A stretch of 64,000 nt of DNA from an uncultured bacterium (GTDB lineage Bacteria > Oederibacteriota > JAAXVQ01 > JAUVAV01), in assembly GCA_963710755.1 (NCBI GenBank), contig CAVQBK010000001.1, forward strand, positions 304,277 to 368,276, written 5' to 3'. Positions 6,507 to 50,301 of the stretch are shown here, piece by piece. The translations under genes and the position numbers were made by a program. The notes below the pieces were generated by a model. It did no database searches. It saw only the letters and a list, made by a program, of their open reading frames with translations, and was not told the DNA's origin. How positions within the stretch are numbered: position 1 is the first letter of the stretch; every line of letters starts with the position of its first letter.

Positions 6507-9500
6507 AACGGTATTGATCAGCTCGGTTAAATGGTGCGGATGCTGTCCCGAGCCCGGCGGCCAAGGCGGTTTCCGGCTGAAAGATAAGTTTAAGAATCAC
6601 CCCGCGATGAAAGCCCGGCCCCCAAGATCCATGTCCAAAGAGGCTGTATGCCTTCTTCCATCATAAGTGGGGAAAGCAGTTCCTTCAATTGCCAACTCAA
6701 AGCCTCACGATCCATTTTTAAACCATATTTCTTTGATAAGAGTACAATGAATCGGGAACATTCCTTTCTGTCCAACACATCTAATAATGCCATGATAAGC
6801 CTTCACCAACTCATCCAGGCGAATGCACGCCCGGTCTAATCATCTCATCATGAAACATATACGACTCGGCCTCCTCTTCTCCCAAGAACAGCGTTAAAAA
6901 GGAGCGCCGCAAGTTTGGTTGCAATGTTTCCAAAGACATCCTTACCGGGGCAATCAAGGGGCAATTGCTCAAATCGATCAAAATAGCTCTTAACGGTGTC
7001 TTCCAAATCCGCAATGGAGGTTTTATTCACCAAGGATTGCAGTATACGGCTTATGTCCTCAATAGTTTCTAATTTCTGATAATTTAATAGTTCCACTACC
7101 ATCTTCAGATCAACATTTTGATCAAGCATACTTTGAAGAATGTTATCGCGATTTTTCCCAGGAATATTTTTGGTTGCTGCATATGGCGGCGATCAGCCAG
7201 TTTATGTCTCTTCTGGTTTTGGTCAAAGATTTTACAAGTGATTCATTTTTTATCTTCACAGGTTCAAGCAACTTTAAAATCTCTTCCAATTCATCAGTGG
7301 GATAGGTGCTTTTAAGGAAAGCTTGCATGATTGCATCATTGGAGATCTGGTCATGATGTTTACGGTAGAATTTATAATTTGTATTGGCACCCCGATCGCC
7401 TTTAACAAAAGTTTTAACCATGGCCGGGGTCAAGTTATTACTTTCAGGATCTTGTATTAGACGGATTAATAGGCTTATTCCTCTCGCCAGCTCAGGCAAA
7501 CTAAGCTGTTCTTTGACCTCTTGAGGCCAATTTCTCAGCCACACCGGCGGTTCCGATAAGGTGATGGCTTGCATGATGGTTCTGCTGACCACACGTTCTA
7601 CATCATTGGTGCGGGTAATTATTCCGCTGAACACCATCGCCAAGTCACTCCATGACAAAGCAACTCCAGGTATTTTCCCAGAGCGATCCAAATGATTTAA
7701 AGAAGCCCCAAGCCGCGTTAGGGCAAGCTTCACGGGCTGCTCTCCCACCAGGTTCGCCTTTGCCAACTCGGATACCACGGTACTCAGTCTGTCACGAAAA
7801 CGATTAACTTTGGCCAGCCTCTGGAATGATCTTAATCGCATACTTAACGCTCGACTGTTGGCTTTCAGCTTCCAGTCTATGCTTCATTTCCAGAAGATCT
7901 TGGTTCGATAAACTCGATCCCAATATCTGAGCCCGCTCATTAACCCCCGCCCAGTGCTTGGCCACCCACCTTACCACCTCTTTCAGACCTTCAATTTCCC
8001 GGCGACCACTGATGGTTTCCGCCACTGCCGTGGCCTGAATAACAATATCTTCCTTCTTAAGATTGTTAAAAACCGCAACATAGTCTTCTAATTCTGCTGC
8101 CGGCCGGTCACTGCGGAGCAAAGAGGCCACCGCCCGGCCATTAATCAACGATAAATGGTTGCCCTTGTTTAAAAAAGCCCAAAGGCCAAGATTTTCTTTG
8201 AATCGTCTGATGTAACTGTACCGATATTGCGGGTCAATCATATTCTTTATATCACTTTGATTAAAAAACAGGGGATGGTCGGGTTGGCTGATATGTTCAA
8301 GCAGCAAGGGAAACAGTGTTTCCCAATTGCGATGAACCAAGGGAATGGATTTAAGTTCTTCCATAAAAGCATGGCTCTGCAGCCAATGTTGATCATCCAG
8401 GGTCTTAATCATTGCACTTATATCAGAAGGCAAATTCAGTCCCTGCCAGGATACGCTACTTTCATTGTCGGATTTGGTAATGGTCAGCTGTTGCACTTCC
8501 TCCCTAGTCATTGAAAAAACCGTCATCAACAGGGTCTGACTGGAAGGTGTCAAAGCTTTAAACCATTTCAGCAATTCATCATAATCTTCCAAATTGTTTT
8601 CAGCAGTAGGCGGCTTGCCAAGCGTCATCGAAGGAGGTCCTCGCCGTCTGGTGAAAAAACGTCGAAGCTTTTCTTTAACATTCTGACTCATACCTAGCGC
8701 CAGCAGCCGCGAAAAATCATCAACGCTCCAATTCTCACCCAAGACTAATAGTTGCCGAATCTCTTTTAATCCAACCGAGCGTTTGATGATCCGTTCCACC
8801 AGTCCCGGTTGGTCTTTTATATGCAGTTGATAGACCAGGTCCAAAATAGCTTCCAAACGCCGGTCACTCCCGTTTTGCATAGCCACGCATTCGCCAATGT
8901 TGGTCGGGGGCATGTCCAAAGCCAGCAGACGTTCATACAAATCCAACAGCACCGGCAAAGGTCGTGGGTTCACAATGAGCAGACGCATAAGATTGTAGGA
9001 CGGGCTTTCCTTTTTATATGTTGTATCACTGACCAACTGCCGCAGTTCTGCCGCTGTCTTGGTGGTGTCCACTGCTGCTTCCAATATACTACGTTCTAGC
9101 GGCAGATTTTTCTCCTTGAGGTAGTGGTAAATAATTTCCAGATGATCGCGATGATTTAAAAACTTATGGATTCTGGTACCTTCGAAACTTTTTTCAACTT
9201 CCCCTGGCTCCCGCCACTGTTCTTTTTCATGATCTGCCCCGGTTGGTGCTAACGCCTGTATAATGATATGAATGAAGGCCGCGTCACTGCCGCGACGTAA
9301 GGTCTCTCTCTCTTCAGTGACATATTTGTAAAACTCAAATCGATTTTTTTGCACCGTCTGAACAGTTTGCTGTTTGATACGTGTTTTTGAATCGGTCCCT
9401 TGGATTTTCGCAATACTTTTGTCAAATCTTTCATTTTGATGTTGTTCCTTGTACAATATTTCTTTAAGTGATCTCAATCGTTCTTGCAGTTCCCTTTTCA

Positions 9501-12500
9501 GAACCTCTCTAAGTCTAAGCGCTTCCTGATTGGACATCATATCAGACTTTTCCAATTGGCCCACCAAGTTCATCAAACGTTTATCCAATTGTTCGTCTTG
9601 AGTAAAAGTTTGCTTTTCGATAATGGCGCCCAGCTTCATGCGTAGGTCGTTTCTATTGACAATACGGAGATGCTCCTTCCCTAATAACCTTTCCTTGATA
9701 GCTGTATTGGACAGCTGACTGCCTAAAATATCGTCATAGGCACCTTGCGCGTAGCCTTTTTGCTTCAAGCCAGACAAGATCGCTTCCAGACCCTGCACAG
9801 GTCTTGCCCGCTCAAATAGGCGGGTAATTAGAGAAGGTGACAACTTATACTTATCTTCATCAGTTTCTTGGTTGTAATTTCCAATGACCTCGGCATAACC
9901 TTCGACATCTTTCAAGGTCATTTTCTTCTTAAAGACAGCAACAGCCGCGTTGGGCGTTATTTGTGGCTCACGGCCAATGGGTTCCCATAGGTTTAAATGC
10001 TCCACAAAATAAGCCCATCCTTGCCGCCGAATGGACTCCAGTTGATTCGGTTCAAAAAATAGCTGGGATTCATTTGGCCTGGTCAGCTTCGTGAGGATAA
10101 GATCAAACACTTTCACTTCCGTATGATCCACAGCAGGCAGGTTATTGATAGCTTTAGCAACCCGGCCTTTGTCCAACCAACCCATCCGGGCCAGCTGATC
10201 AACCACTGGTTCCCAGTTCGACCCTTCACCGTCAACAAGGATGGGCTCATGCGAGTTATCTCCTGACCGACCGCCTTGGTGTTGCTCCATCATCATCTGA
10301 ACCGGCCATTGCCAGTGCAGCCAAGGCCCGCCGATAGTCATGCCCTTAGCACCGGCAGGCCAAAGGATCTCCACGGGCCACTGCCAACGCAGCTTAAAGG
10401 TTGGAAAATTAAAGCGGGAGGATAATGGCTTGAAGAAAGAACTGTAGGTGTCTTTTTCAATCAGCTTGTAGACGTAGACCCAAATGGAACCCCAGCCTGG
10501 CCGGCCCTTCAGCTGTTGGTCCAAACTCTGCAATCGCAGCCCTTCATGGACAACAATGGTCGGTAGCAGCAGGCCTTCCCTAAGCCGATTAAACCAGCGG
10601 TTAGTCCGAGCGCGCCACCAGCCAAGGCGCCAAAAATACCACCTTGCGGCCTTGAGACCACGCTGTCCGGGCCAGCCGGTACCAGGCCATGGTTGAATCA
10701 AGATTGACTTCATCAGCCCCGGCCTGCACCAGGGGCTGGTTGAACGCCTCAGTAAGCTTTGGATCCTGCGGGGCCCTGTCCAGATGAAGCCATCGCGCCT
10801 GAATCACCAAACCCAGGGCAATGGCCGTTTGTACTCCATAGACCATTAATGACAAACCACTGACCCCGCTTATGAGGAGCATGGTGAAAATCCATTGCAG
10901 GCCTTGACCATGGAGTACCAAGGAAAGGCTCGATCCCAGCATTAAGCCACTTAGCATAACTGCCATAAAGCCCTGAAGAAGATTGAAATCGCCTTTTTTG
11001 CCCCGCTTGTCAGTAGGTTTGAAGCCAATGGCCTTCCACGGGTTCAGCTTTGCAACCCATTGGCTTGTCATTTCAAGTAACTGTATAAAACGTTTGGCCC
11101 AATGGGTGGCTTTTTTCTGCCCATAGGCTTTTCTTGCAATAGCCAGGGCGGAAATAAGAAAGGTCGTGGATATGAGTCCGGTCAACGTCAAAGGTCCTGC
11201 GCCGGGTTTGACGCCAACCCCTTCCTCCCATTTATCGTAATAAGTCCCAAAAGCGACCTTTTTCCGCGGTAAACCGAAGATATCCACCGCCGGGAATTCA
11301 GGTTGCAGACTTTCAGGCTGCTTGTTTTGCCCGAAACGTGGTTCCAGGTACTCCATGTCCGCATGACTGCCAAAGAAAACCATTTGCCTGGCTACCAGGG
11401 TCCAATCGATCAAACCAAGCGTTTGTTTCACAAATGTCTCATGGCCTGGTCCCAAATAATTGTTAAAGTAAATCTCAAAGCTTTTACGCATCAGATTGGT
11501 TAAGCCCGAAAAACTCTCCGGCTCATTCCAATTCATGTTTCGCCATTTCAATGGATTTTGATTATGCCATTTGATAATCGCCAGAGTCACGACTAAAAAA
11601 TAACGGCTAAAAAATTCCAGTAGGTAAAAATTGGTTTCATTTTCGGCAAAATAGGTGTGAATGAAATCGATGTTTTTGCCCAACAGACCTAAATTTTGCA
11701 TAATCATCGCCATAGGCATAAGCCACTTTAAATCACGAACCATACCTTTCCCGCTCAAATTGATGGCCCAAATGGATTTCTCCCAATGCAGGCCACCGGT
11801 GGTATAACGGAACTTGTCACTGTGGCCGCGTTGGGCAATCCCATAGGTTGCCACAAAAGGTCTGTTGGTTCTCAAATTATGGAAAAGATCGGCCAAGGTA
11901 ATATGGATTTCATCATTGGCTGCCAGATCACCCAATTGACCAAAGGCTTGATAGACGGCATCGAAGAGTTGTTGTTCATTTTGGATATAGGGATAATGCA
12001 TGTATTCAGCGTATTGGGAATGGGGTTCAATTTTTTTAACCACAGCCACCAGCCGTTCCTGTTCTTCGGCCAAATCAAAAGGATGTCCCATAGAGGCCGC
12101 AAAGGTCTGTCTTTGCCCAACCAGTTCCCTGATGGATAAGGCTTGAGGCGAGCCATCAATAGTCTGTAACTCATTCATAGTAATTTTAAATAAAAATCGG
12201 TCTTGTGTTGGCGAAGATTTGACCTCAACCGGACGGGGACAACCCAGCCGGGCAAATTTGACAGCTTTGTCCAGCAGTTGCTGGCATTCAAAAACGAGTA
12301 AGCGGGGATTTTCTCCCTTTTTCAATATTTTTACATCCAGCCCCGACCCGTCTTCACTTTGAAAAATCAGACGTCGCCCCAAAACCGAAATCAGTTTCAG
12401 TGGTTGTTGAACACCGCACTTCTCCAACAACACCTTGCGGTTTAACTCGGGCAAAGAAGATAAATCCAAGGAATAGTCCAGGTTGAGATGCGGGGGCGCC

Positions 12501-15500
12501 GGTTTATAAGACACTTCCGGAACAACGTCCAAAATATACTCCGCCAACTGCAGGGAATGATTGAGCGCTTGGCCGTATATGTCAAATTCAAAATTTTCCA
12601 GGGTTGGTTCTTCTTTTAAAAGTGCCCAGAAAAGTTGGTCTTTTTCCCGTCCGGCCATGGTAATCATATTCTTAATGATGGTGCCTGGAGGTTGGTAGTC
12701 TTTTACAGCTTTTGCATTTTTCTCCAATCGGGCACGAAGGATGGAGAAAACAACCGCGGCGGCCACTGGATCCGCAATGCGTTGACTCAATGTTTTAAAC
12801 CGATCGATTAGCCGAGTGATCCGTTTTTCAATAACCTCGGGCTCGCCATTTGTGAAAACACTCACCGGCAAGGCCAGGTACGTTCTCAGCACAGCCACAG
12901 CACGGGAGGGCGATACGGCCTTTAAAACGTCGATAAACCGCCTGATCTCAACATGTAAATTCTCAATGCCATAATATTGGGCCCTTATCCCCCGTTCATC
13001 GACAAACTCCCTAATAATCTGAATTATGGCATAAAGACTTTCAAAGCCTTTGATTTTACTGATTAAAATTAATTGGTTTAATAATTCATCAGGATCATAA
13101 CCCGGGACTTGGTCCCCTTTCTTGCTGATGGCAAGCAGCTGTTTTAAGGCAGGTTCAATCAGCCGGGGCCGCAGCGCGGCTTGCAAAGTCTTCCATTGGC
13201 GCAAGTGTCTCATGGCCTTGGCCATTGTTAAATTTTGTTGCTCAGGATCGAGAGATCCCGGCTGGGTTAGGGTCCACCGGGCAAGCCAGTTCAGCCAGGT
13301 TTGTACCATCTCCGGTGAGGCCGGCAGGTTAAGGATTAATGTTAAAATCCGATTTTCCAATTTGATTTTTAAAAGAGGATTCGCATCGGGAAAGGTTTGT
13401 AAATATTTTTGGACCGCACTGTAAATATCCGTTTGGTTTTGAGGATAATTCTTTTCGAGGTTGTAGTATATCAGGATTCTTTGAATACTCATTATCAGGT
13501 ATTGATAGGTTTGGGGACGGATTAATTTTTCCAAATATACACCGGCTATGCGCCCAATAGCTGGTTTTAATGGTGGTTGCAGCCGCAGCCCTTCGTGGAC
13601 AACAATGATCGGTAGCAGCAGGCCTTCCCTAAGCCGATTAAACCAGCGGTTAGTTGAGCGAGCCATCAGCCATGGTGCCAGGGATACCACCTTGCGGTCT
13701 TGGGACCATGTGGTCCGTGCCAGCCGGTACCAGGGCATGGTCGAATCAAGATTGACTTCATCCGCGCCGGCCTGTACCAGGGCTTGGTTGAACGCTTCCG
13801 TTAAAACCGGATCCTGTTGAGCCTGGTCAAGGTTAAGCGCTTGTGCCCAAAGCAGCAGACCAAGGGCTACCATCAGCTGGCCAGCCAGCACCGCCACCGC
13901 CAAGGTGCTCATACCAGCCAAGCCAAGGCCGAGCAGTACCCCTAGCCATTGGTGGCTGGTTAAGTAAAATTGAAGTCCGCCTGCCAGAAGCACGCCGCCT
14001 GCCGCGACAGCCAAGGCATTTTGCCAAAGGGAATAAGGGCGGCTGACCTGAGGAGCTTGCTTCGGGAATGTTCTTTAAATACTGCTCAAATTGGCCCTCA
14101 CCTTTTAAAACATCGAGCATGATCATCAGACTAGGTTTAAGGATTTTTTGCCGGTCAGAAAGGCTGTGTTTCAAATGAGTGATCCAGATTTCTTGATACC
14201 CTGCTTCCAAGGCACTGACCTCGATCTCCTGGTCACGAATAGCTTCAAAGGGGTCAAGCTGTTTGTCCAGCTCCATTTTATCAAGGTATTCAGCTTTGAG
14301 CAGCCCTTGACCATAGCCGGTGTTCTTTAATAATGTTGAAAACTGCTTCACCGCCTCTGTCATGAGTTCCATTGCTTGTCTAGGATGACGCCCATGACGC
14401 ATCTTGGCTAGACGTTGCAACTCCATGATCTTCGTCAGACTTTCCTCAACTTCCGGCGTTATTAAATCAGACCGCATGGGTGATAGGAACAGCTTGGTAT
14501 TCAGGAAATCAAGGGTAAAGTCAAGCACTCCAAACGTCGTATTCGGATAACGGTAATCATTGAGTAGCGAGCCGAAATTAAAAAGCAGCGGCCAGCCGTC
14601 CACAAAAAAGTAGCGCCATAAATAGGGCTGGTTCATCTTCATAAAAATCTGAGCAATGAAAATATTGTTGAAAGCTTCTGCCATATTAATGCCGTACAGC
14701 TCAACCTTTTCCGCCGGGCAATGATCAGGCAGCTCACTGTCCTTGATGGTTCTGTAATTGACCACTCTGGCCATCACATAATCTTGCCGGTGAAGTTGAA
14801 TTTTACTCATGGGGCCGATATTGGTTTTTTTCCATTGTTCGAACACTTTAGGCGGTATCTCACTTATCGGGGTCATATTGGCCATAGAATGCAGTAGATT
14901 ATAGGTAAAACGGGTTAATTTAGAAGGTACCCTGAGGATAAGCCAGTTCTCATTTTTATAGGAGATGAGATGAGCCCGCAAATGCTTTTCCATACGCTCA
15001 TAGTAATTCAGATAATTTTCAAAATAGTGAATTCTTCCGGAAAAAGGATTGATCATGGCCGGTTCGGATTGTTTGACACCCTCGATAAACCGGCCCGCAT
15101 ATTCGCCCAGGCCTTCACCTAAATCAGCTTGTAAAAAGGCTAAAATCGCGGTCTTTATCAACTCTTTCCTGGCCTGATGAGCCTTGGCGTCTTTGCTCTG
15201 TTGGCTACCTTTCGTCCCGGTCATCATCATCACCGGTGACATCGGATCATCCGCCACTTCAAAGTCCATTCCTGCAGGAATAGCTAAAGGCTGCTCTTGA
15301 TAAAGGCCATTTTTCAACGTGTTAACCATTGCTTCCCAGAAGCGCCAAGGCGCCCAAAAAACCTTTAAAAGCCATCCTTTAATGGTATTTCCCCAACCCC
15401 TCCACGGCAGGCCGGACAGCCAACGATTGAGATCACGGCCACGGTGTAGCAGGAATGTCAGAACCAAATAGACGGCAATAAGCCTCACCAGGGGTGAGGT

Positions 15501-17303
15501 ATCCAGAGCGTGTCCGCGCCAAGCAGCCAAACGTTGGGTTACAGCCTCAATGTATTCGGGAGCGACCAGCACGATAGGGTGGCTGCCAATGGTCATGGCG
15601 ACATCCAGTCTTTCTTCCTGTTTAACCAGACCGGACACGGCTTTGGGGCCAATTACGGCCAGGGCGGCCTTGGCCCCCAAGCGAATCGGCACCGTCATGG
15701 TGTGGTCTTTATAAACTTTAATGTTACTCCATCCGATTTGGATATCCCGGGCCTGACCGGCATAGCCGGCCAAGAGTTTTTTCACCACTGCATTCAAATG
15801 ATAAATGACTTTATTTTGCATATGGGCATAAGCTATGGTTCTTACCTTAAACAACAACACCAATAAACGTTTAAAAGATCTTTCCCTCACCGTTAGGCCG
15901 GACTCGTCCGGTATTTTAGTCGGGTCCTGACTCTTGGGGAGATAGGATTGGAGGGCAAACTTGCGCTGCTCCTGGCTGAGCCATTGCTCCAGGGCGGTGG
16001 GCTTGCTGGTCAAAAGACTGAAATAGGGATTAAGCACATCCTGCTTGGTCAAACGCGGTTTCAAAGCCAGGTAGGACAAGCCCTTTTCTTTCAGGGCCTT
16101 CAGTACGCCGTCCGTATGATAACCACCGGTGATCAAGAGGGCGATGCCCTGCTTCTGCTCTTGCATGGCTGCAATAGTGTTATCCACAAACGCCCGGCTG
16201 CGCGCCTCAGCCCCTTGATAAAACGTTTTGGCCTCCTTCAGGTAATCATCAAGGCGATAAAGATCAGGTGACAGGATCTGAGTCTGAGTACTTGCTTCTT
16301 TGCCTTGATGGCGGTTGATGAAGTCCATAAAGGTTTGCACGTTAAATAGGTCATGGCCGGTGCGAAATAGCGCCACTTCCTCCGGTGTGGCCGATATATT
16401 CAATAACTTTTCAATAAGGGTAAGACGGCCCAGCTGTTCGTCGAGAAACCGTTCTTCCGGACGGCTATAATACTTTTCCCGTATTAATTGTTCCAGGCGA
16501 TCCATTTCCCCGAAGAGGGCTTCAGGATCCGCCTTTTGGTCATGAGCACCATGGCCCCGGTAAGCCTCGAAATTGGGAAAAGCCTTGAGGCTCAACTTTA
16601 ATTTCCGGGCCAAGCGAGACAGAAACACCGCATACGCGGACAGGGGCACACGTCCGAGTCGGAATTTTTCAAACTGGGCATCAACCTGATGTAAACGTTT
16701 GGAATAGATCGTTGGTTTTAAATTGTTCAGAGCGTCGCGCAAATCATAACAATACCCCAGGGCTTCATGGCTGAGAAGCATGTCCACGGACTTTTTATTT
16801 TCAGCGTAAAGGCGGGCGTCTTCGATGCCTTCCAAGCGTATGGGATTTTTGCCCGTGGCCGCGCAATATTCAGCGCCTGTTAACTTTCCTTGCTTCACAA
16901 AATAATCACTGACTTCTTTGCGGATTTTTTCCAGAGGAAAACTTCTGATCTCAGTGGGATTAATAGGCTGGCTGCTGCCCTCCACCGCCACCAATTTCAG
17001 TTGTTGTTCCTGACTTAACCGTGCGATAAGCTTGGCAATATTCATCTGGACTTCGTAATTACAGTGAAGGTCCTGCAGCTGAATAACCACGGGACCCGTG
17101 CCTTGATGAAAAGATTGAACAGTGGCCAGACGCGACGGGATATGGACAAGCCGGTTATTAAACATCACTGTCCCTTGTCCTGTCATTAAAGCGGAACTGT
17201 CAAAAGACCAACTGACCACCGGTAAAAGAAAACTGAGACAAACCAAATGAGTGACAACTTTGATAGGCCAACTGTGCTTTTTAATAATCAAAGATGAAAT
17301 CAT
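2751..17303 (-). CDS. Single giant multidomain protein gene (about 4,850 aa) broken by at least 7 apparent frameshifts; paralog of 17535..24071
   Basis: Seven or more overlapping or abutting same-strand ORFs, none with an obvious RBS except the first. The break at 10606 is shown by an internal repeat: the upstream copy reads through as ARSTNRWFNRL, while this copy has one extra C. Shares the N-terminal domain and LQSA(A) end with the intact neighbour. Confidence 0.75.
6590..7841 (-). CDS. Giant protein fragments 4-6 (ORFs 7143..7841, 6848..7129, 6590..6793), helical
   Basis: Frames can be joined by single-base indels, e.g. an A5 run near 7155 and a G3 run near 6882 on the coding strand. Confidence 0.55.
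7804..10713 (-). CDS. Giant protein fragment 3: end of second repeat linker, then long alpha-helical region of unknown function
   Basis: True reading begins at TNRWFNRLREGLLLP, continuing the repeat that is interrupted at 10606. Confidence 0.7.
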   Translation of the reverse strand: MKSILIQPWPGTGWPGQRGLKAARWYFWRLGWWRARTNRWFNRLREGLLLPTIVVHEGLRLQSLDQQLKGRPGWGSIWVYVYKLIEKDTYSSFFKPLSSRFNFPTFKLRWQWPVEILWPAGAKGMTIGGPWLHWQWPVQMMMEQHQGGRSGDNSHEPILVDGEGSNWEPVVDQLARMGWLDKGRVAKAINNLPAVDHTEVKVFDLILTKLTRPNESQLFFEPNQLESIRRQGWAYFVEHLNLWEPIGREPQITPNAAVAVFKKKMTLKDVEGYAEVIGNYNQETDEDKYKLSPSLITRLFERARPVQGLEAILSGLKQKGYAQGAYDDILGSQLSNTAIKERLLGKEHLRIVNRNDLRMKLGAIIEKQTFTQDEQLDKRLMNLVGQLEKSDMMSNQEALRLREVLKRELQERLRSLKEILYKEQHQNERFDKSIAKIQGTDSKTRIKQQTVQTVQKNRFEFYKYVTEERETLRRGSDAAFIHIIIQALAPTGADHEKEQWREPGEVEKSFEGTRIHKFLNHRDHLEIIYHYLKEKNLPLERSILEAAVDTTKTAAELRQLVSDTTYKKESPSYNLMRLLIVNPRPLPVLLDLYERLLALDMPPTNIGECVAMQNGSDRRLEAILDLVYQLHIKDQPGLVERIIKRSVGLKEIRQLLVLGENWSVDDFSRLLALGMSQNVKEKLRRFFTRRRGPPSMTLGKPPTAENNLEDYDELLKWFKALTPSSQTLLMTVFSMTREEVQQLTITKSDNESSVSWQGLNLPSDISAMIKTLDDQHWLQSHAFMEELKSIPLVHRNWETLFPLLLEHISQPDHPLFFNQSDIKNMIDPQYRYSYIRRFKENLGLWAFLNKGNHLSLINGRAVASLLRSDRPAAELEDYVAVFNNLKKEDIVIQATAVAETISGRREIEGLKEVVRWVAKHWAGVNERAQILGSSLSNQDLLEMKHRLEAESQQSSVKYAIKIIPEAGQS
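10529..13832 (-). repeat. Intragenic direct repeat of about 255 bp, two copies (10529..10783 and 13578..13832), bracketing the SidJ-like module
   Basis: Both encode DPxLTEAFNQxLVQAGADEVNLDSTMxWYRLARTxWSQxRKVVxLAPWLxARSTNRWFNRLREGLLLPxIVVHEGLRLQ, each preceded by two TM helices. Confidence 0.9.
10601..14014 (-). CDS. Giant protein fragment 2: TM/repeat linker, helical region and SidJ-like pseudokinase domain (about 11170..12400)
   Basis: Motifs GRRLIF, DVKILKKGE, YAEYMH, LADLFHN, INL..G..RDL, RYFLVVTL, RQMVFF in the same order as recalled Legionella SidJ motifs. Confidence 0.7.
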   Translation of the reverse strand: MAVAAGGVLLAGGLQFYLTSHQWLGVLLGLGLAGMSTLAVAVLAGQLMVALGLLLWAQALNLDQAQQDPVLTEAFNQALVQAGADEVNLDSTMPWYRLARTTWSQDRKVVSLAPWLMARSTNRWFNRLREGLLLPIIVVHEGLRLQPPLKPAIGRIAGVYLEKLIRPQTYQYLIMSIQRILIYYNLEKNYPQNQTDIYSAVQKYLQTFPDANPLLKIKLENRILTLILNLPASPEMVQTWLNWLARWTLTQPGSLDPEQQNLTMAKAMRHLRQWKTLQAALRPRLIEPALKQLLAISKKGDQVPGYDPDELLNQLILISKIKGFESLYAIIQIIREFVDERGIRAQYYGIENLHVEIRRFIDVLKAVSPSRAVAVLRTYLALPVSVFTNGEPEVIEKRITRLIDRFKTLSQRIADPVAAAVVFSILRARLEKNAKAVKDYQPPGTIIKNMITMAGREKDQLFWALLKEEPTLENFEFDIYGQALNHSLQLAEYILDVVPEVSYKPAPPHLNLDYSLDLSSLPELNRKVLLEKCGVQQPLKLISVLGRRLIFQSEDGSGLDVKILKKGENPRLLVFECQQLLDKAVKFARLGCPRPVEVKSSPTQDRFLFKITMNELQTIDGSPQALSIRELVGQRQTFAASMGHPFDLAEEQERLVAVVKKIEPHSQYAEYMHYPYIQNEQQLFDAVYQAFGQLGDLAANDEIHITLADLFHNLRTNRPFVATYGIAQRGHSDKFRYTTGGLHWEKSIWAINLSGKGMVRDLKWLMPMAMIMQNLGLLGKNIDFIHTYFAENETNFYLLEFFSRYFLVVTLAIIKWHNQNPLKWRNMNWNEPESFSGLTNLMRKSFEIYFNNYLGPGHETFVKQTLGLIDWTLVARQMVFFGSHADMEYLEPRFGQNKQPESLQPEFPAVDIFGLPRKKVAFGTYYDKWEEGVGVKPGAGPLTLTGLISTTFLISALAIARKAYGQKKATHWAKRFIQLLEMTSQWVAKLNPWKAIGFKPTDKRGKKGDFNLLQGFMAVMLSGLMLGSSLSLVLHGQGLQWIFTMLLISGVSGLSLMVYGVQTAIALGLVIQARWLHLDRAPQDPKLTEAFNQPLVQAGADEVNLDSTMAWYRLARTAWSQGRKVVFLAPWLVARSD
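13833..17303 (-). CDS. Giant protein fragment 1: signal peptide, conserved N-terminal domain (QDLHCNYEVQ...VEGS...TGGYHT...NPYF) and first cargo region
   Basis: First ~450 aa align motif by motif with 17535..24071; the tail after ~14050 reads as out of frame. Confidence 0.8.
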   Translation of the reverse strand: MISSLIIKKHSWPIKVVTHLVCLSFLLPVVSWSFDSSALMTGQGTVMFNNRLVHIPSRLATVQSFHQGTGPVVIQLQDLHCNYEVQMNIAKLIARLSQEQQLKLVAVEGSSQPINPTEIRSFPLEKIRKEVSDYFVKQGKLTGAEYCAATGKNPIRLEGIEDARLYAENKKSVDMLLSHEALGYCYDLRDALNNLKPTIYSKRLHQVDAQFEKFRLGRVPLSAYAVFLSRLARKLKLSLKAFPNFEAYRGHGAHDQKADPEALFGEMDRLEQLIREKYYSRPEERFLDEQLGRLTLIEKLLNISATPEEVALFRTGHDLFNVQTFMDFINRHQGKEASTQTQILSPDLYRLDDYLKEAKTFYQGAEARSRAFVDNTIAAMQEQKQGIALLITGGYHTDGVLKALKEKGLSYLALKPRLTKQDVLNPYFSLLTSKPTALEQWLSQEQRKFALQSYLPKSQDPTKIPDESGLTVRERSFKRLLVLLFKVRTIAYAHMQNKVIYHLNAVVKKLLAGYAGQARDIQIGWSNIKVYKDHTMTVPIRLGAKAALAVIGPKAVSGLVKQEERLDVAMTIGSHPIVLVAPEYIEAVTQRLAAWRGHALDTSPLVRLIAVYLVLTFLLHRGRDLNRWLSGLPWRGWGNTIKGWLLKVFWAPWRFWEAMVNTLKNGLYQEQPLAIPAGMDFEVADDPMSPVMMMTGTKGSQQSKDAKAHQARKELIKTAILAFLQADLGEGLGEYAGRFIEGVKQSEPAMINPFSGRIHYFENYLNYYERMEKHLRAHLISYKNENWLILRVPSKLTRFTYNLLHSMANMTPISEIPPKVFEQWKKTNIGPMSKIQLHRQDYVMARVVNYRTIKDSELPDHCPAEKVELYGINMAEAFNNIFIAQIFMKMNQPYLWRYFFVDGWPLLFNFGSLLNDYRYPNTTFGVLDFTLDFLNTKLFLSPMRSDLITPEVEESLTKIMELQRLAKMRHGRHPRQAMELMTEAVKQFSTLLKNTGYGQGLLKAEYLDKMELDKQLDPFEAIRDQEIEVSALEAGYQEIWITHLKHSLSDRQKILKPSLMIMLDVLKGEGQFEQYLKNIPEASSSGQPPLFPLAKCLGCRGRRRASGRRTSILLNQPPMARGTARPWLGWYEHLGGGGAGWPADGSPWSAALGTSA

Positions 17304-17534: not shown

Positions 17535-20500
17535 TTATGCCGATTGGAGTAGCGAATGAACCCCCGGACGAAGACGTTTTTGGGGTTTTTGCTTGGAATC
17601 GAAAAGCTTCTTAAGCAGCGGCTCTATACCCCATATCGGCAGAGGGTGTTGATGACGATCGTGTAGGCGGCGCGGAAACCAACGTTTGAATAACGATTGC
17701 TCTTGGGCAAATTCCAGACTGATTGTTTCCATTCTTCGTGTGTAATAGTCATAGGTCATAGCCACGGCCAGCATGGCGCGGCCCTGCCAAGTCAGCAATC
17801 CTCGACGGTTAAAACAAGCTGCTGGTAGAATCACTTCCATTTTTTTAGAGGCACCGTCATAAGTGACTACCCACTGGTGTGCCATGACTCTATGAGCATA
17901 GTCAACCAACGTCATTCCTGGAACGATGTGAAAAGATAGAAGCACCTGCTTATCCAGCAAACTAATCAAAAGAGCCGGTTCTTGGAGAGCATGGGTTACA
18001 AACAACCGACCTAATTGGTCCATCGTTGTATCGCTCATTGTACTTGCTCTCAGATGGTCCCGCCTGTGCAGGCTTGTAATCAGGACAAGACCATACAAGA
18101 AAATTTTCAGCATTAAGACTTTCAGCCAAAGAGGCAGTGGAATTGACAGGGGCAGCATCGTCTGATTAACCTGATGGTCACGTATAACCTTGTCCAAAGG
18201 CAACGTTAACGTTTTTTGGGCTATGCTCTCTTTTCCTTGTTTTACAATGATATTCTGATCATAATTAGCCCGGGCATGCGCTACTCCGCTGGTTTTGATA
18301 ACCGGCCAGGCCACTAAACCCAGCAATCCGGCCATGATCCATGATCCCAAAATACCACTGGCCGAAAGTGCGCCGAGACCGGCGGTTATCACCATTGGCA
18401 GGAGCAATGAGGTTCTTGCAGCCGTCCAGGAAGGTCTTAGCATGAATAAAAGGCGTTGCAATGGCTTCATACCGTTGGGTCCGCGCCATGCCTTATACTC
18501 ATGTTGGGCAACATCAGCAACCAACACGCCGCCAAAGACATGGGCGCCAAGAAAGACTGCAAAAAGCAAGGCAGCCGGCCCTAATAGCGATAGGATCAGA
18601 GCCGTCCAACCCTGTGCTTGGCCATGGCCAAGCACAGCCAATATCTGGAAAAGAAGATAGACCGTACTGGCCACCCATCCTTCCGCGCGCCCCGTGGTCA
18701 CAGGGTCCCAGCCTAAGGTTGCCCCCAGTTTCCCTATGGCGCCAGGCACGCCATTCAGCGCTGTTCCATCAGGCAAGATTACAGATCCATTGGTATAGGT
18801 CATCACCATGGTTAGCGGCAAGCGTTGAAACCAGGCATTGTAATGGTCGTAGTAATGGACAATCTTTTGATTCCATTGTTTAAGTTCGTTAAAAAAAGCC
18901 TTTAACTCATTTTGTTTATCAGGATCCGCCTGCCAATGATGAAGAATCTGATTAAATAAAAGATGGAAATCCCCTTTATCAAATTCATTGTAATAACTGT
19001 CTTGGTTCTGCATGCCCACAAACCAATGGATTACAAAATCAGCCAATGTTTTTCCATTTAGCTGATTCAATATCTCATAGCGCTTGTCCTTATCCACCAC
19101 CTGGCTCACGGCAGCAGGTATAATGGCCTTGTGTTGGTTGATCAAGTCGAATATTTGGTTGCGGGTCAGGCGTGAAAAATCAAGGTCCGTTTTTTCAATC
19201 CAAACTGCCAGAAGATGGGGGTCTGTTCGGCCCAGTTGGGTCAAGGTGTTTTTATACAAATTATGATTAAAGGGAAATCTTAAAATCCACCTGAATAATT
19301 TAGGATTAATGTCCGCAATCAAGGTCAGCAAATACACAAATTGGTCATGGGGCAGCTGCCCATAGACGTCCTGCATCATGTTACGAATATTGCCCAGTAA
19401 TATCCGCTCATCGGCCTTGAGATTTAAAATAGCAGGACCTTCCGTCAGCACGGTAAGCGCCGTGGTTAAAAGGAGGATATATTTTTGCTGAACCAACTCC
19501 GGATGGACCAGTCTGATCTTGCGTAATAAGGTTTTCAATGGCAGGGATAAGTCTTTTTCGGTTCCCTCTTTCTGCCCAATCCAAGCCTTGATGATTTTGC
19601 TCAGATGGGCCGCTTCTTCCAAATGCTTGGCCTGCAATTTATGACGCCACTGTTTAATTGTTCGTGTCCAAACCATGGTCTCCTTTTGATGCCCCAAGAG
19701 ACCTGAATAAGGCAACACAGGAATGTTATCTCCATGGTAAACGCGGCCGGTGTTGCCGTCGACCGTGATGGGATCATCAAAGGACAAGCGCCTGTTTTCA
19801 GGCCCCAACAGCGCGTACGATTTTAGGCCATAACCCTGAATCTTCATTTGCGCCACGCCGGTAACCACCGGTTCAAAGCGGCGGGCCTGGCGTTTAAGCG
19901 CAGCACCGTGAGAATAAACATTGCCATAGGCCTCGATCACACCTTGGCATAGAGGATGGCGGATCAGGTCTTCATCACCGGCATTGGTTTGGCGTACCAC
20001 CAATATAATGGGCTCTTGCTTGGTAATTAAAGCTTGGGCCTGTTGACGGTTAAAAGCCGTTCGGCCACTAGCCACTCCGGGAGCGCAAGCCAGCCCATTA
20101 GCCAGCAAGTCGTTGCGGGCCTTGGGTTCATCCACCCAGGGCGCCTTCAGGGCATCCTCAAACCAAGCCAGCTCTCCCAGGGATATTTCGCGCATAATTT
20201 CCTGATCGCTTTTCAACCTTTCTTGTTTCATTTGCAGCAGACTGCGGATACGTGCCAGGGGGTAAAGCAGCCTGTCGGCACTGCGCAATTGCACCGCCGC
20301 CAGCCGGCCTGCTTCAATGGTGAATTCCATGTCCAAACAAGTACGATAATGTTTTTCCATCCTGTTTTTTAACCGTTCCAATTCTCTATAAACGTGCGGC
20401 AGACGCTCGGCCAGGCTTACCAGGCCATTGGCGGTCACTGCTCCGGAAACAATATCCTCACCCACAGCGCCCCAGGAAAAGACACCCCACATGCCCTTCT

Positions 20501-23500
20501 CACCGGTAATGGGATGGCGCGAATAAAGCACGCCCGATCCGGACTTGCGCTGATCAAGGGGCTTATAGCCATCCCTGTCACCAAACACCATCTCCTGGAT
20601 AATAACGGCCGTGCCTGTATCAGCCAGGCTGGATTGCTCCCTGTACTCCCGCATGGGTTTGCCATCCCAAGACGCTGCGACAGCTTTAATGGCTTCATGC
20701 ATCTGTTCATTAATATCCTCAGGATAAGCCAGATGAAGCCCCCTCAACCGTTTCCGGTATAATCTGACTAATTTTCGCCAATCCTGAGCTTCAAGGTCCC
20801 CCGGCTGGCGTCCGGCAAGCACTTCTGTGTAGAGAGGGTCAAATTCCTGTGGTTTAACATTGTGCACTTTGACGCCGTACTCCCTGATGCCTCTGGCATA
20901 GGCCTGCCAGGCAAAACGGGGATCAGTGGCCTTGGCCAAGGCTTTCACCCTCCGTTGATTAAGACCGAGGTAGGTTACGGTCTTCATTTTACCTGGTGCT
21001 GAGTCAGGCGCACCGGAACGTACTGAGATCAAGAGTGGAACCCCTTTTCCAGAACGCCACCGCTTATGGGACATGGTTTCCAGCCGCTTCATGGCCTTTT
21101 CCAAATTCATGATCATATTCGTATAAAATCCTTTATTTTCAATCGCTTTATTGGCTACGCCGACAGGAATAACAAATCCTATTGGTACAGGTCCGTTTAA
21201 TTTGGCCATTTCAGATAAATTGGCACCTTTGGCGCTCAGTATGTCGCGCATTCCCATATCGCCATCAGCATAACCAGGATAGAAAAAATAAAAGGGCACA
21301 TCACTTTTGTGAGATCCTACGCTAGGAGTATCAGCGGCCTTGCTAAGCATTAAATGATCATGATGTTGCCTGGGAGGCGGACTCCCCATCGCCATGACTC
21401 CATTGGTCAATAGCCTCCATGGCCCGGGAAGAAAGGCCAAAGTTAAAACCGCCAGCAAAGCTATAATGAAAGTTATATTTTGCCGAAAAAGCAATGGACC
21501 TTGGGCCCAAATAGCCGGCCATGAATCATGCCAATGATAAAACAAAATGCCGCCTATAACCGTTGCGGCCAACCACCAATAGGGGTTTCTTTTAGTGTCT
21601 GCCCGGTTGACGTTGGCATGCATCCATCCGCTGACAATGTCGATGACCGCGCCGGACAGAAAAGCCTGTTTAATCTTCCGCCAGTCCCCTTTGCCGATGT
21701 CCTCGGTGATCTCCCTGCCATGATCCTTAGGCTGGAACAGGCGATTGATGATGTGTTTACTAAGCAGTTCCACCATGCGCTTACGCGAGGTTGTTCCGTC
21801 AACGGGATCGGGAAAAGTGCCGCCATAACGCAGCTTAAGGAAAAAGTTAAAATCGGTCATGAGCAAAACTTTGTTCTGATACGCAGGATGAAGGTTTAGA
21901 AGCTTCTTTTTGATTTCCGGGCTGGCCACGACAATCAGATCGCTCTTTTTTAATACTTCGCTGGTTATTGGTCTGCTTCTAAAAGCTATGAGACTTTCTT
22001 TATCAATAGGTACATGTGCTTCACGTATAACTGCCAAATAGTGTTGGTCAATAGATAGGTCATACGTTGCCGACTTTACATACCATCCCCCGGAAGTTAC
22101 AGTGACATTGCTCTTCCCCTGGAGATTAATCTGATATTGAGCAAGGAGTTCCGCCAAAGCGCTACGGTTGCGGTTGGTAAGGCAAACAAAACAGAGATTG
22201 ACCTCCTCATCAATTGCAATGGCATTGGCAATGCGATCAATCAAAGGCTGTTTGGGAACAAAAAGTGAATCCACACCACTTTTGAATACCCTTGCCGGTG
22301 TAAAAAGGAATGCCTTTATCTTCGTCCCCCAATCCTCGTTTAATTTTGAACCCAGCTGCTTTACCAGGGCCTTGACTTGGTATTCATTATCAACGTGCGC
22401 GATTATCCAGTGTGGCAGGATATCGGCTTGGAATAAATTTTCCGGCATCGCAAATTCCGCACTACCGTGATTTCGGGGCATGACCACAACCTCTTTGGAC
22501 ACGCCGGCTACCATGGCCTGGCCAATGCTCATCCACTGCGCGCACCGGGCTTGCTGTTTTTGCTGCGCTGTCCATGGCCGAGGCTGACTATACTCGTCTT
22601 GGTTTTGGCTCAAAAATCGGTCCAAGGCTTCAGTCTTGTGTTTAGAATGATCTTTTACCCAAAATCCCAATGGTTTTAAAATCGCCTGTACCCTTCCCAT
22701 AAACGCGGGTTGCTCAAAAATGCTGCGCAGGGCCATTTTGGTCTGGTGTTTTTGAAACAAGGCTTCCAGAGGCGTTGGCCGGCCTTGCAGCAATTGGAAA
22801 TAAGGATTAAGGCGGTCATGTTTGGTGAGGCCCGGGGTGATTAAAACCGTGCTGATCCCTTTCTGACGCAGCGCTTCCAGGACAGCAGCTGTATGATAGC
22901 CGCCGCCAATCAAAATCGCCCTTGGTTGGCCGGTGGCACTCATTTTTTTCAGCAAATGCTCCACAAAGGCCGTACTGCGCCGGTCGGCCAGAAGGTAGAA
23001 TTGCCGGGCATGTCCCAGGGCCTGATTCAGGCTGGTGACGGCCAAGGTCAGATCAGTATCCTCTATGGTTATCCTATGATCATTGGCCATGCGTTTAAGA
23101 TCCTGGTACAGGAAGGCGGCGTTGTATTGGCTATGTTGGCGAAAGGTTAGAAGTTCGGAAGGCGTAGCGGAAATAGCGGTTATTTTTTCGACCAGCTCAA
23201 GCCAGCGTTCACCTTGAAGGATGCGTTTTTCCTCTTCCTTGGTGGCCAGCCGGTCCGCCAGGATGTTTTCCATCCCGGCCATGTCTTGAAAAAGACGGTC
23301 AGGGTCAACGTCCGAAGGATGTTGTTCATACTGTTCCAGGTCCATATAAGCGTCCAAGGCCAACCCCAGGCGCCGGGCTTGAGCTAAAAGCGAACGGCCA
23401 TAATCAGGCAGGGGCAAATGCCCCTCCCTGTATTGCCGTTTTAAACGGGCCAGGGCTTGGAGGTTAGGGTTATAAACATAAGGCTCAAGGGTTTCCAGGG

Positions 23501-24071
23501 CAGTTCTGAAATCCGCCAGGCAACCAAGATTTTCATTGTTGACGATGTCCTTAATCTGCGTCTGGCTGGCCTGAAAAAGGCCGGGATCATCAATGCCCTC
23601 CAATTGAAGCGGACTGTCATTGCGAATTGAGGCCAACTCAGCACCTGTCATCCGGCCCTGGCGTAAAAGAAATTCACTGACCTCTTCTTTAAGCTCCGCT
23701 AAGGGGAAACGTTGAATAATGCCGGTGTCAATTGGCGCAAAGGCACCTTCTTGGCCTACCAGTTTCAAATGATAATGACGGGCCAAATGGCCGATGATGG
23801 CGGCAATGTTTTTCTGCACTTCATAGTTGCAATGGAGATCTTCAATGTAAAAAACGGTTTTCGGTCCTGCAGGCACCAATCGGCGTATGGTGCCAAGTTG
23901 TTTGGGAAGGTGCAAGGGCCGGCCCTGAACCAGAAAGGTTCCCGACTGGGAAAGATTGGCCGTGGAATCAAAGGCCCAACTAAAAGCAGGCCAAAGCATG
24001 CTTACGGTCATGAGCAGGCTAAGTAATTTAAAATAAGGAGGGCGTTGGTATGGATTGCGTCTGGTGGTCAT
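17535..24071 (-). CDS. Giant multidomain membrane protein (about 2,180 aa): conserved N-terminal DLHCNYEVQ domain, LMW protein-tyrosine phosphatase, PPDK-like ATP-grasp and phospho-His domains, TM segments
   Basis: FVCLTNRNRS (CX5RS) and FPDP; KGANLSEM, ISVRSGA, IIQEMVFG, GEDIVSG, DMEFTIE, YSHGAAL. Start taken at the ATG downstream of AAGGA (ORF track starts at 24113). Confidence 0.88.
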   Translation of the reverse strand: MTTRRNPYQRPPYFKLLSLLMTVSMLWPAFSWAFDSTANLSQSGTFLVQGRPLHLPKQLGTIRRLVPAGPKTVFYIEDLHCNYEVQKNIAAIIGHLARHYHLKLVGQEGAFAPIDTGIIQRFPLAELKEEVSEFLLRQGRMTGAELASIRNDSPLQLEGIDDPGLFQASQTQIKDIVNNENLGCLADFRTALETLEPYVYNPNLQALARLKRQYREGHLPLPDYGRSLLAQARRLGLALDAYMDLEQYEQHPSDVDPDRLFQDMAGMENILADRLATKEEEKRILQGERWLELVEKITAISATPSELLTFRQHSQYNAAFLYQDLKRMANDHRITIEDTDLTLAVTSLNQALGHARQFYLLADRRSTAFVEHLLKKMSATGQPRAILIGGGYHTAAVLEALRQKGISTVLITPGLTKHDRLNPYFQLLQGRPTPLEALFQKHQTKMALRSIFEQPAFMGRVQAILKPLGFWVKDHSKHKTEALDRFLSQNQDEYSQPRPWTAQQKQQARCAQWMSIGQAMVAGVSKEVVVMPRNHGSAEFAMPENLFQADILPHWIIAHVDNEYQVKALVKQLGSKLNEDWGTKIKAFLFTPARVFKSGVDSLFVPKQPLIDRIANAIAIDEEVNLCFVCLTNRNRSALAELLAQYQINLQGKSNVTVTSGGWYVKSATYDLSIDQHYLAVIREAHVPIDKESLIAFRSRPITSEVLKKSDLIVVASPEIKKKLLNLHPAYQNKVLLMTDFNFFLKLRYGGTFPDPVDGTTSRKRMVELLSKHIINRLFQPKDHGREITEDIGKGDWRKIKQAFLSGAVIDIVSGWMHANVNRADTKRNPYWWLAATVIGGILFYHWHDSWPAIWAQGPLLFRQNITFIIALLAVLTLAFLPGPWRLLTNGVMAMGSPPPRQHHDHLMLSKAADTPSVGSHKSDVPFYFFYPGYADGDMGMRDILSAKGANLSEMAKLNGPVPIGFVIPVGVANKAIENKGFYTNMIMNLEKAMKRLETMSHKRWRSGKGVPLLISVRSGAPDSAPGKMKTVTYLGLNQRRVKALAKATDPRFAWQAYARGIREYGVKVHNVKPQEFDPLYTEVLAGRQPGDLEAQDWRKLVRLYRKRLRGLHLAYPEDINEQMHEAIKAVAASWDGKPMREYREQSSLADTGTAVIIQEMVFGDRDGYKPLDQRKSGSGVLYSRHPITGEKGMWGVFSWGAVGEDIVSGAVTANGLVSLAERLPHVYRELERLKNRMEKHYRTCLDMEFTIEAGRLAAVQLRSADRLLYPLARIRSLLQMKQERLKSDQEIMREISLGELAWFEDALKAPWVDEPKARNDLLANGLACAPGVASGRTAFNRQQAQALITKQEPIILVVRQTNAGDEDLIRHPLCQGVIEAYGNVYSHGAALKRQARRFEPVVTGVAQMKIQGYGLKSYALLGPENRRLSFDDPITVDGNTGRVYHGDNIPVLPYSGLLGHQKETMVWTRTIKQWRHKLQAKHLEEAAHLSKIIKAWIGQKEGTEKDLSLPLKTLLRKIRLVHPELVQQKYILLLTTALTVLTEGPAILNLKADERILLGNIRNMMQDVYGQLPHDQFVYLLTLIADINPKLFRWILRFPFNHNLYKNTLTQLGRTDPHLLAVWIEKTDLDFSRLTRNQIFDLINQHKAIIPAAVSQVVDKDKRYEILNQLNGKTLADFVIHWFVGMQNQDSYYNEFDKGDFHLLFNQILHHWQADPDKQNELKAFFNELKQWNQKIVHYYDHYNAWFQRLPLTMVMTYTNGSVILPDGTALNGVPGAIGKLGATLGWDPVTTGRAEGWVASTVYLLFQILAVLGHGQAQGWTALILSLLGPAALLFAVFLGAHVFGGVLVADVAQHEYKAWRGPNGMKPLQRLLFMLRPSWTAARTSLLLPMVITAGLGALSASGILGSWIMAGLLGLVAWPVIKTSGVAHARANYDQNIIVKQGKESIAQKTLTLPLDKVIRDHQVNQTMLPLSIPLPLWLKVLMLKIFLYGLVLITSLHRRDHLRASTMSDTTMDQLGRLFVTHALQEPALLISLLDKQVLLSFHIVPGMTLVDYAHRVMAHQWVVTYDGASKKMEVILPAACFNRRGLLTWQGRAMLAVAMTYDYYTRRMETISLEFAQEQSLFKRWFPRRLHDRHQHPLPIWGIEPLLKKLFDSKQKPQKRLRPGVHSLLQSA

Positions 24072-24241
24072 GGGCATGATTCCTTGCAGAGAGTGAACTC
24101 CGCTGCAAATCATATCAGAAAAAAGAGGCTCGCGATAAATATCCTCTATTTAATAACCAATTTTGCAATTCTTACGCCAGCTGTTTTTAATGATGCAACA
24201 GTTAAGGTTTTATTTTTTTATGGTTTATCGGGTATTGGTAC

Positions 24242-27488: not shown

Positions 27489-27593
27489 AAGAACTCCTCG
27501 CTTGTGGTTGGAATAATGGAAAAACAATTTGCAGGATTATAATGGAAATAATGGAGATGTGGAAGGTATTTTATGTGTTCTCTTTAAATTGAT

Positions 27594-46471: not shown

Positions 46472-46472
46472 A

Positions 46473-50282: not shown

Positions 50283-50301
50283 GATTTCCCTCCGGTATTT
50301 T

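Follow-up and report, generated by a model that had tools for sequence, protein, structure and literature searches.

A SidJ-family kinase-fold domain embedded in a giant, frame-interrupted gene of an uncultured soil bacterium

Introduction

How much of the chemistry of SidJ, the calmodulin-dependent protein glutamylase of Legionella pneumophila (PDB 6K4K, 6OQQ, 6PLM, 6S5T, 7MIR, 7MIS, 7PPO, 7PQE), could be kept by a domain lying inside a giant gene of an uncultured soil bacterium? The question is raised by a stretch of 64,000 nucleotides, hereafter the window, from an uncultured member of the Oederibacteriota (assembly GCA_963710755.1, contig CAVQBK010000001.1, positions 304,277 to 368,276 of the forward strand). 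A previous reading made from the letters alone (the sequence-only reading) had proposed at positions 11170-12400 a SidJ-like pseudokinase, possibly of altered chemistry, used outside Legionella as one cassette of a polyprotein. SidJ is the only kinase-fold protein glutamylase of known mechanism, and the role of its relatives outside Legionella is a question that both mechanistic SidJ papers raise (PMC6858067; 10.1101/2021.04.13.439722). We have examined whether the domain belongs to the SidJ family, which of the catalytic residues it keeps and in which kind of gene it is found.

A SidJ-family domain in the middle of the gene

The domain occupies residues 499-960 of open reading frame (ORF) B (P0001; 10601..14014, minus strand, an open frame of 1137 codons), that is, nucleotides 11135-12520. 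This envelope is slightly wider than the span proposed earlier, which corresponds to residues 539-949 and was borne out. The eight motif strings on which the proposal rested are all present in the ORF B translation and in the order given, with GRRLIF at residues 546-551, DVKILKKGE at 560-568, LADLFHN at 707-713 and AINLSGKGMVRDLKWL at 750-765. The SidJ counterparts given with them match the SidJ sequence (GRTLLF, YFTYLH, LADIFHT, WQKAVEYVNL, ADLGD, EYLLVIQL, RQTQFW) with a single letter wrong, VAVKVQKKGE having been given with KRGE at its end.

Searches that start from this one sequence do not reach SidJ. A phmmer comparison of the whole of ORF B with the PDB gave just four unrelated matches (E 0.19-1.4), Pfam and NCBIfam gave nothing meaningful for the three frames of the gene (ORFs A, B and C, described below), with no Pkinase match in Pfam, and a word-indexed homologue search of residues 500-960 over 5.8 billion proteins returned the window's own protein only. 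The ESM Atlas gave matches to unnamed clusters at 0.91. An exhaustive HMMER search of 1.84 billion representatives recovered 39 proteins at E <= 1e-3, the strongest at 3.6e-32 and 27% identity. The 39 include the window's own protein and also three (P0017, P0023 and P0034) that were dropped as they matched through short repeated stretches only.

The family relationship appears when the relatives are taken together. Profile A1, made from the window domain and 25 relatives, was compared by HMMER with the 177,635 sequences of the PDB and matched SidJ at E 7.6e-59 over chain residues 324-751, the best match to anything else being at E 0.002. Profile A2, restricted to the window domain and its eight nearest, short-loop relatives, still matched SidJ at E 1.2e-15, and one relative, P0032, matches the SidJ chains of the PDB at 7.3e-27. 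An AlphaFold2 model of the domain built on A1 (predicted local distance difference test, pLDDT, 80.7; predicted template modelling score, pTM, 0.84) has a SidJ-type kinase-like fold, with an N-lobe sheet and alpha-C helix, a helical C-lobe and a large insertion in the catalytic loop. Foldseek matched this model to 15 chains at E <= 1e-3; the 12 listed are all SidJ (E 9e-12 to 5e-10, TMq 0.55-0.62) and the other three are further chains of the listed entries, after which comes Haspin at 4e-2. VIA-align gave ten SidJ entries with Z of 21.8-23.0, 370-383 residues aligned at a root-mean-square deviation of 3.7-4.4 Å and 16-18% identity, covering SidJ 325-754; the next fold, the canonical kinase Haspin, had a Z of 9.8. 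The absence of any significant profile or structural match to SidJ had been named beforehand as what would speak against a SidJ-family module; it was checked, and strong matches were found by both routes. ORF B residues 499-960 truly belong to the SidJ family of kinase-fold domains, an assignment about which we have next to no doubt.

Residues of the two SidJ pockets

According to PMC6858067, the kinase-like cleft of SidJ is lined by R352, K367, E381, N534, D542 and D545; there K367A, D542A and H492A abolish activity and N534A severely impairs it, while D545A, E381A and D489A have little or no effect. The preprint 10.1101/2021.04.13.439722 describes an acyl-adenylate held by R500, N733, H492 and Y506, and a donor glutamate positioned by R522, so that the R522A mutant adenylates yet cannot glutamylate. 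In SidJ, H492A kills adenylation, and glutamylation drops markedly when R500, N733 or Y506 is changed to alanine. We compared these positions over 43 family domain instances, from 35 proteins, five cassettes of a giant protein of genome G007 (see below) and the window. SidJ numbers were counted on the alignment of profile A1 with SidJ and the window codons were checked, with the following outcome.

12374-12376, minus strand: Arg547, aligned with SidJ R352; Arg in 41 of 41 aligned family domains
12329..12331, minus strand: Lys562, aligned with SidJ K367, the Lys that binds the ATP phosphates; Lys in 41 of 41 aligned
12287-12289, minus strand: Glu576, aligned with SidJ E381; Glu in 41 of 42
11879..11881, minus strand: His712, aligned with SidJ H492, the His of the migrated pocket; His in 43 of 43
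11855-11857, minus strand: Phe720, aligned with SidJ Y506, a conservative change; the column has Y 36, F 5, V 1 and A 1
11792..11794, minus strand: Gly741, at the position of SidJ R522, the donor-glutamate Arg; Arg in 39 of 43
11723..11761, minus strand: metal-binding segment with Asn752, Asp761 and Trp764, aligned with N534, D542 and the D545 position
11198..11200, minus strand: Ala939, at the position of SidJ N733, an acyl-adenylate contact; Asn in 34 of 39 aligned, the window being the sole Ala

The alignment confirms the residues that the sequence-only reading took as kept (R547, K562, N752, D761 and H712) and also the two that it took as replaced, the Arg of 'LGRID' being Gly741 and the second Asp of 'DLGD' being Trp764. 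The N534 column is Asn in 42 of the 43 domains and the D542 column is Asp in all 43. The exchange of D545 for Trp764 says little, because that column varies within the family (E 24, H 5, D 4, Y 4, W 2 and four other residues once each) and because D545A had little or no effect in SidJ. The position of R522 has only four exceptions: Gly in the window, Gln in G007 cassette 1, His in P0003 and Cys in P0013. Residues 737-745 of the window hold neither Arg nor Lys, and Arg736 and Lys734 lie just upstream of Gly741. The loop between H492 and Y506 is shorter, as in the window's subfamily, and the equivalent of R500 could not be placed with confidence in a column that is gapped and ambiguous. As far as the alignment tells, the changes that matter are R522 to Gly, N733 to Ala and the shortened H492-Y506 loop. 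Only the first of them had been seen by the sequence-only reading. The altered chemistry of which it spoke is a possibility, and loss of activity would be about as likely.

One giant gene in three frames

The domain lies in the middle of three long frames, ORFs C, B and A, that overlap in different frames on the minus strand and whose pieces we translated separately, without joining them. The features, given in the direction of transcription after the gene as a whole, are these.

7804..17303, minus strand: the giant gene in full, ~9.5 kb long and of ~3,170 codons as one, in three open frames that overlap, C (13833..17303), B (10601..14014) and A (7804..10713)
15894..17303, minus strand: head domain, ORF C residues 1-470, with an N-terminal hydrophobic anchor (residues 14-32) followed by a domain common to a large paralogous family
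14051..14053, minus strand: first frame change, from the C frame to the B frame, across which homology runs on
13505..13963, minus strand: hydrophobic segments (hydropathy scan) and linker module copy 1, ORF B residues 18-170, 57% and 56% identical to copy 2
12521..13504, minus strand: helical region before the kinase-like domain, ORF B residues 171-498, conserved with the cassettes of relatives from about residue 360
10601..11134, minus strand: hydrophobic segments at ORF B residues 1016-1034 and 1042-1060 and first half of linker copy 2
10605..10607, minus strand: second frame change, from the B frame to the A frame, inside linker copy 2
7804..10713, minus strand: last piece, ORF A, 969 amino acids, with the second half of linker copy 2 and then helical regions

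On sequence comparison, C, B and A are one gene of about 9.5 kb, for four reasons: the continuity of the linker module, the homology that runs on from C into B, a natural contig in which the two are in register, and relatives that have all the parts in one chain. The linker module is about 150 residues long; copy 1 is read in one frame, and copy 2 (10400-10780, minus strand) continues in the A frame. The contig, of 203 nt and from a soil metagenome (covering 13879-14082), has one letter fewer at 14052, bringing C and B into register; it is a single contig of depth 2.5, with nine other differences from the window. Four other contigs of 151 nt from the same soil-metagenome run are identical to the window, so that the sample apparently contains two or more strains or relatives. 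Public contigs covered 10 of the 30 bins of 10400-14200, with the place of the second frame change outside this coverage. As to the one-chain relatives, the N-terminus of C (~450 residues) shares 38-41% identity with the N-termini of P0003, P0004, P0007 and P0020 and 40% with the start of the G007 giant protein; each of these has one or more SidJ-like domains downstream in the same chain. The giant protein of the sequence-only reading thus stands as one gene, split in this assembly into three frames.

Each piece stays open over 969-1156 codons, and the first frame change is missing from a natural variant, which argues that the gene is intact or was so until recently. The two frame changes could be mutations or assembly errors. 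Programmed frameshifting was considered, and inspection by eye, the only means used, revealed neither a slippery site nor a long homopolymer at either junction. Genome-wide there are 101 pairs of overlapping long open frames among 1,428 frames, a count that does not separate assembly error from mutation. Other large overlapping pairs are found elsewhere in the genome (e.g., C13:366376-383045), and the window itself has two more long same-strand pairs, 48327-50372 with 50302-53838 (minus strand, overlap 71 nt) and 44939-46600 with 46473-47189 (minus strand, overlap 128 nt), which could reflect either additional frame changes within long genes or simply upstream extensions.

Hydrophobic, transmembrane-like segments, several in number, separate the domains in C, B, the neighbouring ORF D (see below) and the relatives; they were located with a crude Kyte-Doolittle window and not with a topology predictor. 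The module of hydrophobic segment and linker seems to separate cargo domains. Linker copy 1 is 36% identical to residues 736-858 of the G007 giant protein and 42% identical to its residues 10725-10783. BLASTP alignments of the cassettes of P0003, P0004 and G007 to ORF B start at residues 357-402, inside the helical region (residues 171-498), for which Pfam gave no match. ORF A, equally with no match in Pfam, contains two copies of a unit of ~200 amino acids; P0004 repeats this unit too, and the G007 giant protein has it (BLASTP). The term polyprotein is unproven: several domains, with hydrophobic segments lying between them, make up this giant protein, for which cleavage would be a supposition.

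Tandem cassettes in genomes of the same family

SidJ-like cassettes were found in 4 of the 99 species genomes of the phylum, the window's own included. All four are in the window's family, where 3 of the 10 other members have them, versus 0 of 88 genomes in the other 22 families. The same-genus genome G001 has no ORF B match; its ORF C orthologue ends at the end of a contig. The largest array is that of G007:C1:375288-412943, an uninterrupted open frame of 12,551 amino acids with about 22 hydrophobic segments and five SidJ-like cassettes in tandem (residues 1334-1795, 2243-2703, 3122-3585, 3939-4397 and 5148-5605). Pfam found nothing at the family cut-off in this protein, and one sub-threshold MarR_2 match. 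Cassettes 3 and 4 keep all 39 of the columns conserved at 80% or more; in cassette 1 the R522 position holds Gln and the N534 position Gly.

A FastTree phylogeny of 42 domains places the window domain among the giant-protein cassettes of its own bacterial family (support 0.995). A sister relationship to G007 cassette 1 had a support of just 0.64 and we do not claim it. The nearest SidJ-like subfamily outside the family includes proteins from metagenome-assembled genomes (MAGs) of Omnitrophota, recorded as 'hypothetical protein'.

Which chemistry could remain

Taken by analogy with SidJ, the window domain may be an adenylating (AMPylating) or otherwise re-purposed relative and not a SidJ-type glutamylase, a reading for which we find belief and doubt evenly balanced. 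The kinase-like cleft (R547, K562, E576, N752 and D761) together with His712 would bind ATP and metal, and the transfer of AMP to a carboxylate, be it the domain's own or that of a protein glutamate, would be the most that the domain could do. The second half-reaction of SidJ, in which free glutamate positioned by R522 attacks the acyl-adenylate held by R500, N733 and Y506, would not be conserved, because Gly741, Ala939 and the shortened loop replace its residues. It is from the phenotype of SidJ R522A that ATP binding, adenylation and loss of glutamyl transfer are predicted here. The cassette is one cargo of a membrane-anchored giant protein of ~3,170 amino acids, made of the head domain, modules of hydrophobic segment plus linker and helical regions, and part of a lineage-specific expansion in the giant proteins of one bacterial family.

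Several observations weigh against this proposal. In the AlphaFold2 model pLDDT is < 50 at model residues 228-241 and 426-442, in the two loops to which the positions of R522 and N733 belong, and the alignment at R500 is ambiguous. Arg736 and Lys734, so close to Gly741, could compensate for the lost R522. Two frame changes interrupt the gene as assembled here; of the 39 columns conserved at 80% or more the domain has only 28, the second lowest value of 42 domains; and the remodelled pocket may abolish all catalysis, because in SidJ the migrated pocket is needed for adenylation as well.

The two frame changes and the low number of conserved columns fit as well with a decayed or non-catalytic copy, either a pseudo-enzyme or part of a pseudogene of this strain, kept as a scaffold or not kept at all, which we consider possible and somewhat short of probable. 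Besides, the window domain is the sole family member with Ala at N733 and one of four in 43 without the R522 Arg, and the same-genus genome G001 lacks an ORF B match, although the orthologous gene there runs off the contig end. G007 cassette 1 is also degenerate (R522 to Gln, N534 to Gly) within an intact frame of 12,551 residues, so that dead cassettes seem to be tolerated. Against decay, none of the six invariant or nearly invariant family residues (R, K, E, H, N and D) is lost, no stops interrupt the pieces of 969-1156 codons, the contig of a related strain is without the first frame change, and both changes could be errors of assembly.

A full SidJ-type protein glutamylase, or a ligase of another amino acid, with the donor positioned by, for example, Arg736 or Lys734, is unlikely. 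The intact cleft and His, the basic residues in the loop upstream of Gly741 and the conservative Phe at the Y506 position, shared with other domains of the family (Phe in 5 of 43), are compatible with it; the R522 Arg is present in 39 of 43 domains, its change to Ala abolishes glutamylation in SidJ, N733 is lost too and the H492-Y506 loop is shorter. That the domain is not related to SidJ at all, being a chance resemblance of motifs or an ordinary Hanks-type protein kinase, is hardly credible and was ruled out by the profile, Foldseek and VIA-align matches (E 7.6e-59 and 1.2e-15; Z 23 versus 9.8 for the best ordinary kinase), even if single-sequence phmmer, Pfam and NCBIfam are blind to the SidJ link. 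As judged from its residues, the module probably has a different chemistry or none.

The head-domain family and neighbouring genes

The head domain at the start of the giant gene has 29 copies in this genome, in genes that share the head and differ in cargo, and 43 matches in G001. A total of 44 relatives were found at E <= 1e-3, proteins of 635-2023 amino acids, those with a name coming from Candidatus Firestonebacteria, FCPU426 and Omnitrophota MAGs. As cargo they carry, among others, the Pfam domains of radical SAM, alpha-amylase, phosphoglucomutase, UDP-glucose pyrophosphorylase and PPDK with peptidase M50. Of the 29 head-domain genes of the genome a single one has the SidJ-like domain, and a tblastn search with that domain against its own genome found no second copy. 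A PDB profile search with the head domain gave 0 matches. Its AlphaFold2 model (pLDDT 80.3) gave VIA-align Z values of 9.5 for HopBA1, 8.8 for EreC, 8.3 for ChaN and 8.2/7.8 for BcR135, and EreC was also the best Foldseek match (E 2.3e-3). The predicted structure thus has a modest likeness to the HopBA1/EreC/ChaN/BcR135 group, the EreC type being erythromycin esterase.

ORF D (17535..24113, minus strand, 2192 amino acids) has the same head domain (22614-24113), and as cargo a low-molecular-weight phosphotyrosine phosphatase and a PPDK-like ATP-grasp region with a PEP-utilizer mobile domain, with four hydrophobic segments. A protein of a different kind, of 3190 amino acids, is encoded at 35189-44761 (minus strand), with FlgD_ig/CHU_C-like, Big_6 and NHL/Vgb_lyase-like beta-propeller repeats; an NHL-repeat protein of 314 amino acids is found at 31554-32498 and a LysM protein at 28494-31550. 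The genes at 24242-25099 and 25767-27527 (minus strand) code for the two subunits, beta and alpha respectively, of a 2-oxoacid:ferredoxin oxidoreductase, an enzyme suggestive of anaerobic life. A 15-kb MAG contig holds an alpha subunit with 89% identity to this one and also an ORF C orthologue with 70-72% identity.

Discussion

The window domain resembles SidJ in its kinase-like fold with an insertion in the catalytic loop and in the equivalents of R352, K367, E381, H492, N534 and D542. It differs by R522 to Gly, N733 to Ala, Y506 to Phe and D545 to Trp, by the shorter H492-Y506 loop, and by its setting in a giant protein with hydrophobic segments of an uncultured soil bacterium. The match stops at SidJ 751-754, with no counterpart of the N-terminal and base domains or of the C-terminal calmodulin-binding domain; in ORF B what follows are hydrophobic segments. 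A strict IQ pattern was not found in C, B or A, and PF12252 (SidE_PDE) had 0 matches in this genome (98% complete) but also none in 14 control genomes.

That the module is used outside Legionella holds, but SidJ homologues there have already been published (Sulpizio 2019; Osinski 2021 preprint). The available part of PMC6858067 names Elusimicrobia, Desulfovibrio hydrothermalis and Waddlia, and that of 10.1101/2021.04.13.439722 speaks of 'taxonomically diverse groups including archaea and viruses', without the IQ motif or SidE. As there described, these homologues are of the same family as the window domain, with the residues of the kinase-like site conserved, and like it they lack the IQ motif and the SidE-interacting N-terminal domain; SidE is missing beside them as well. 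The same parts of these papers describe no cassettes in giant multi-domain proteins, no tandem arrays and no loss of R522, although the supplements may list such cases. The Legionella paralogue SdjA (PMC8546864; also PMC12599244) has a SidJ-family kinase fold, as the window domain does; it is a translocated effector described as both glutamylase and deglutamylase. SelO, an AMPylating pseudokinase (PMC12599244, available part), is an analogy only in how it works, a kinase fold transferring AMP and not phosphate; it belongs to a different family and is absent from the profile and fold matches of the window domain.

A similar architecture is that of the giant multi-enzyme proteins of Omnitrophota, the 'Archaeovorins' (10.1101/2023.11.21.568195, 10.64898/2026.06.07.730766), long chains in which many hydrophobic segments tile unrelated enzyme domains. 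Among these domains are PPDK, phosphoglucomutase, radical SAM and GNAT, and the head-domain family of the window carries the same types of cargo. Archaeovorins are above 10,000-30,000 amino acids, whereas the window gene has about 3,170 codons, and no SecA_DEAD or other Pfam domain was found in it. The word 'SidJ' appears 0 times in the body text of both Omnitrophota giant-gene preprints, whose supplements may bear on the point. A full-text literature search gave no paper naming SidJ together with Firestonebacteria or Omnitroph*, and within the literature searched by phrase only the two mechanistic SidJ papers discuss homologues from other organisms, with the same proviso for supplements. SidJ homologues outside Legionella are, then, already in print; the combination of giant-protein architecture and altered pocket was not found in print, though supplements may list such proteins. 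The fold assignment is solid and the context is new, while this particular copy may be defective.

Giant membrane proteins of uncultured bacteria have taken up the SidJ fold as a cassette that can be repeated, and it is the sole recognisable domain there. The public records of the examples that we looked up call them only 'hypothetical protein', and SidJ-like cassettes are a concrete handle on the function of such giant 'dark' proteins. There are natural variants that keep the ATP cleft without the donor-glutamate Arg, mirroring the separation-of-function mutant R522A, and with them nature provides a test of the model in which SidJ catalysis uses two sites. As a more doubtful suggestion, the near-unannotated giant membrane proteins of this one family might use their arrays of SidJ-fold cassettes as ATP-driven modules that activate carboxylates, in cis or on partner proteins of their own envelope or of a prey interface, the window cassette, without the donor Arg and the Asn that holds the adenylate, being a natural 'adenylation-only' or new-nucleophile variant. 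If this were true, it would be a new enzymatic output of the SidJ fold, unrelated to calmodulin or ubiquitin ligases.

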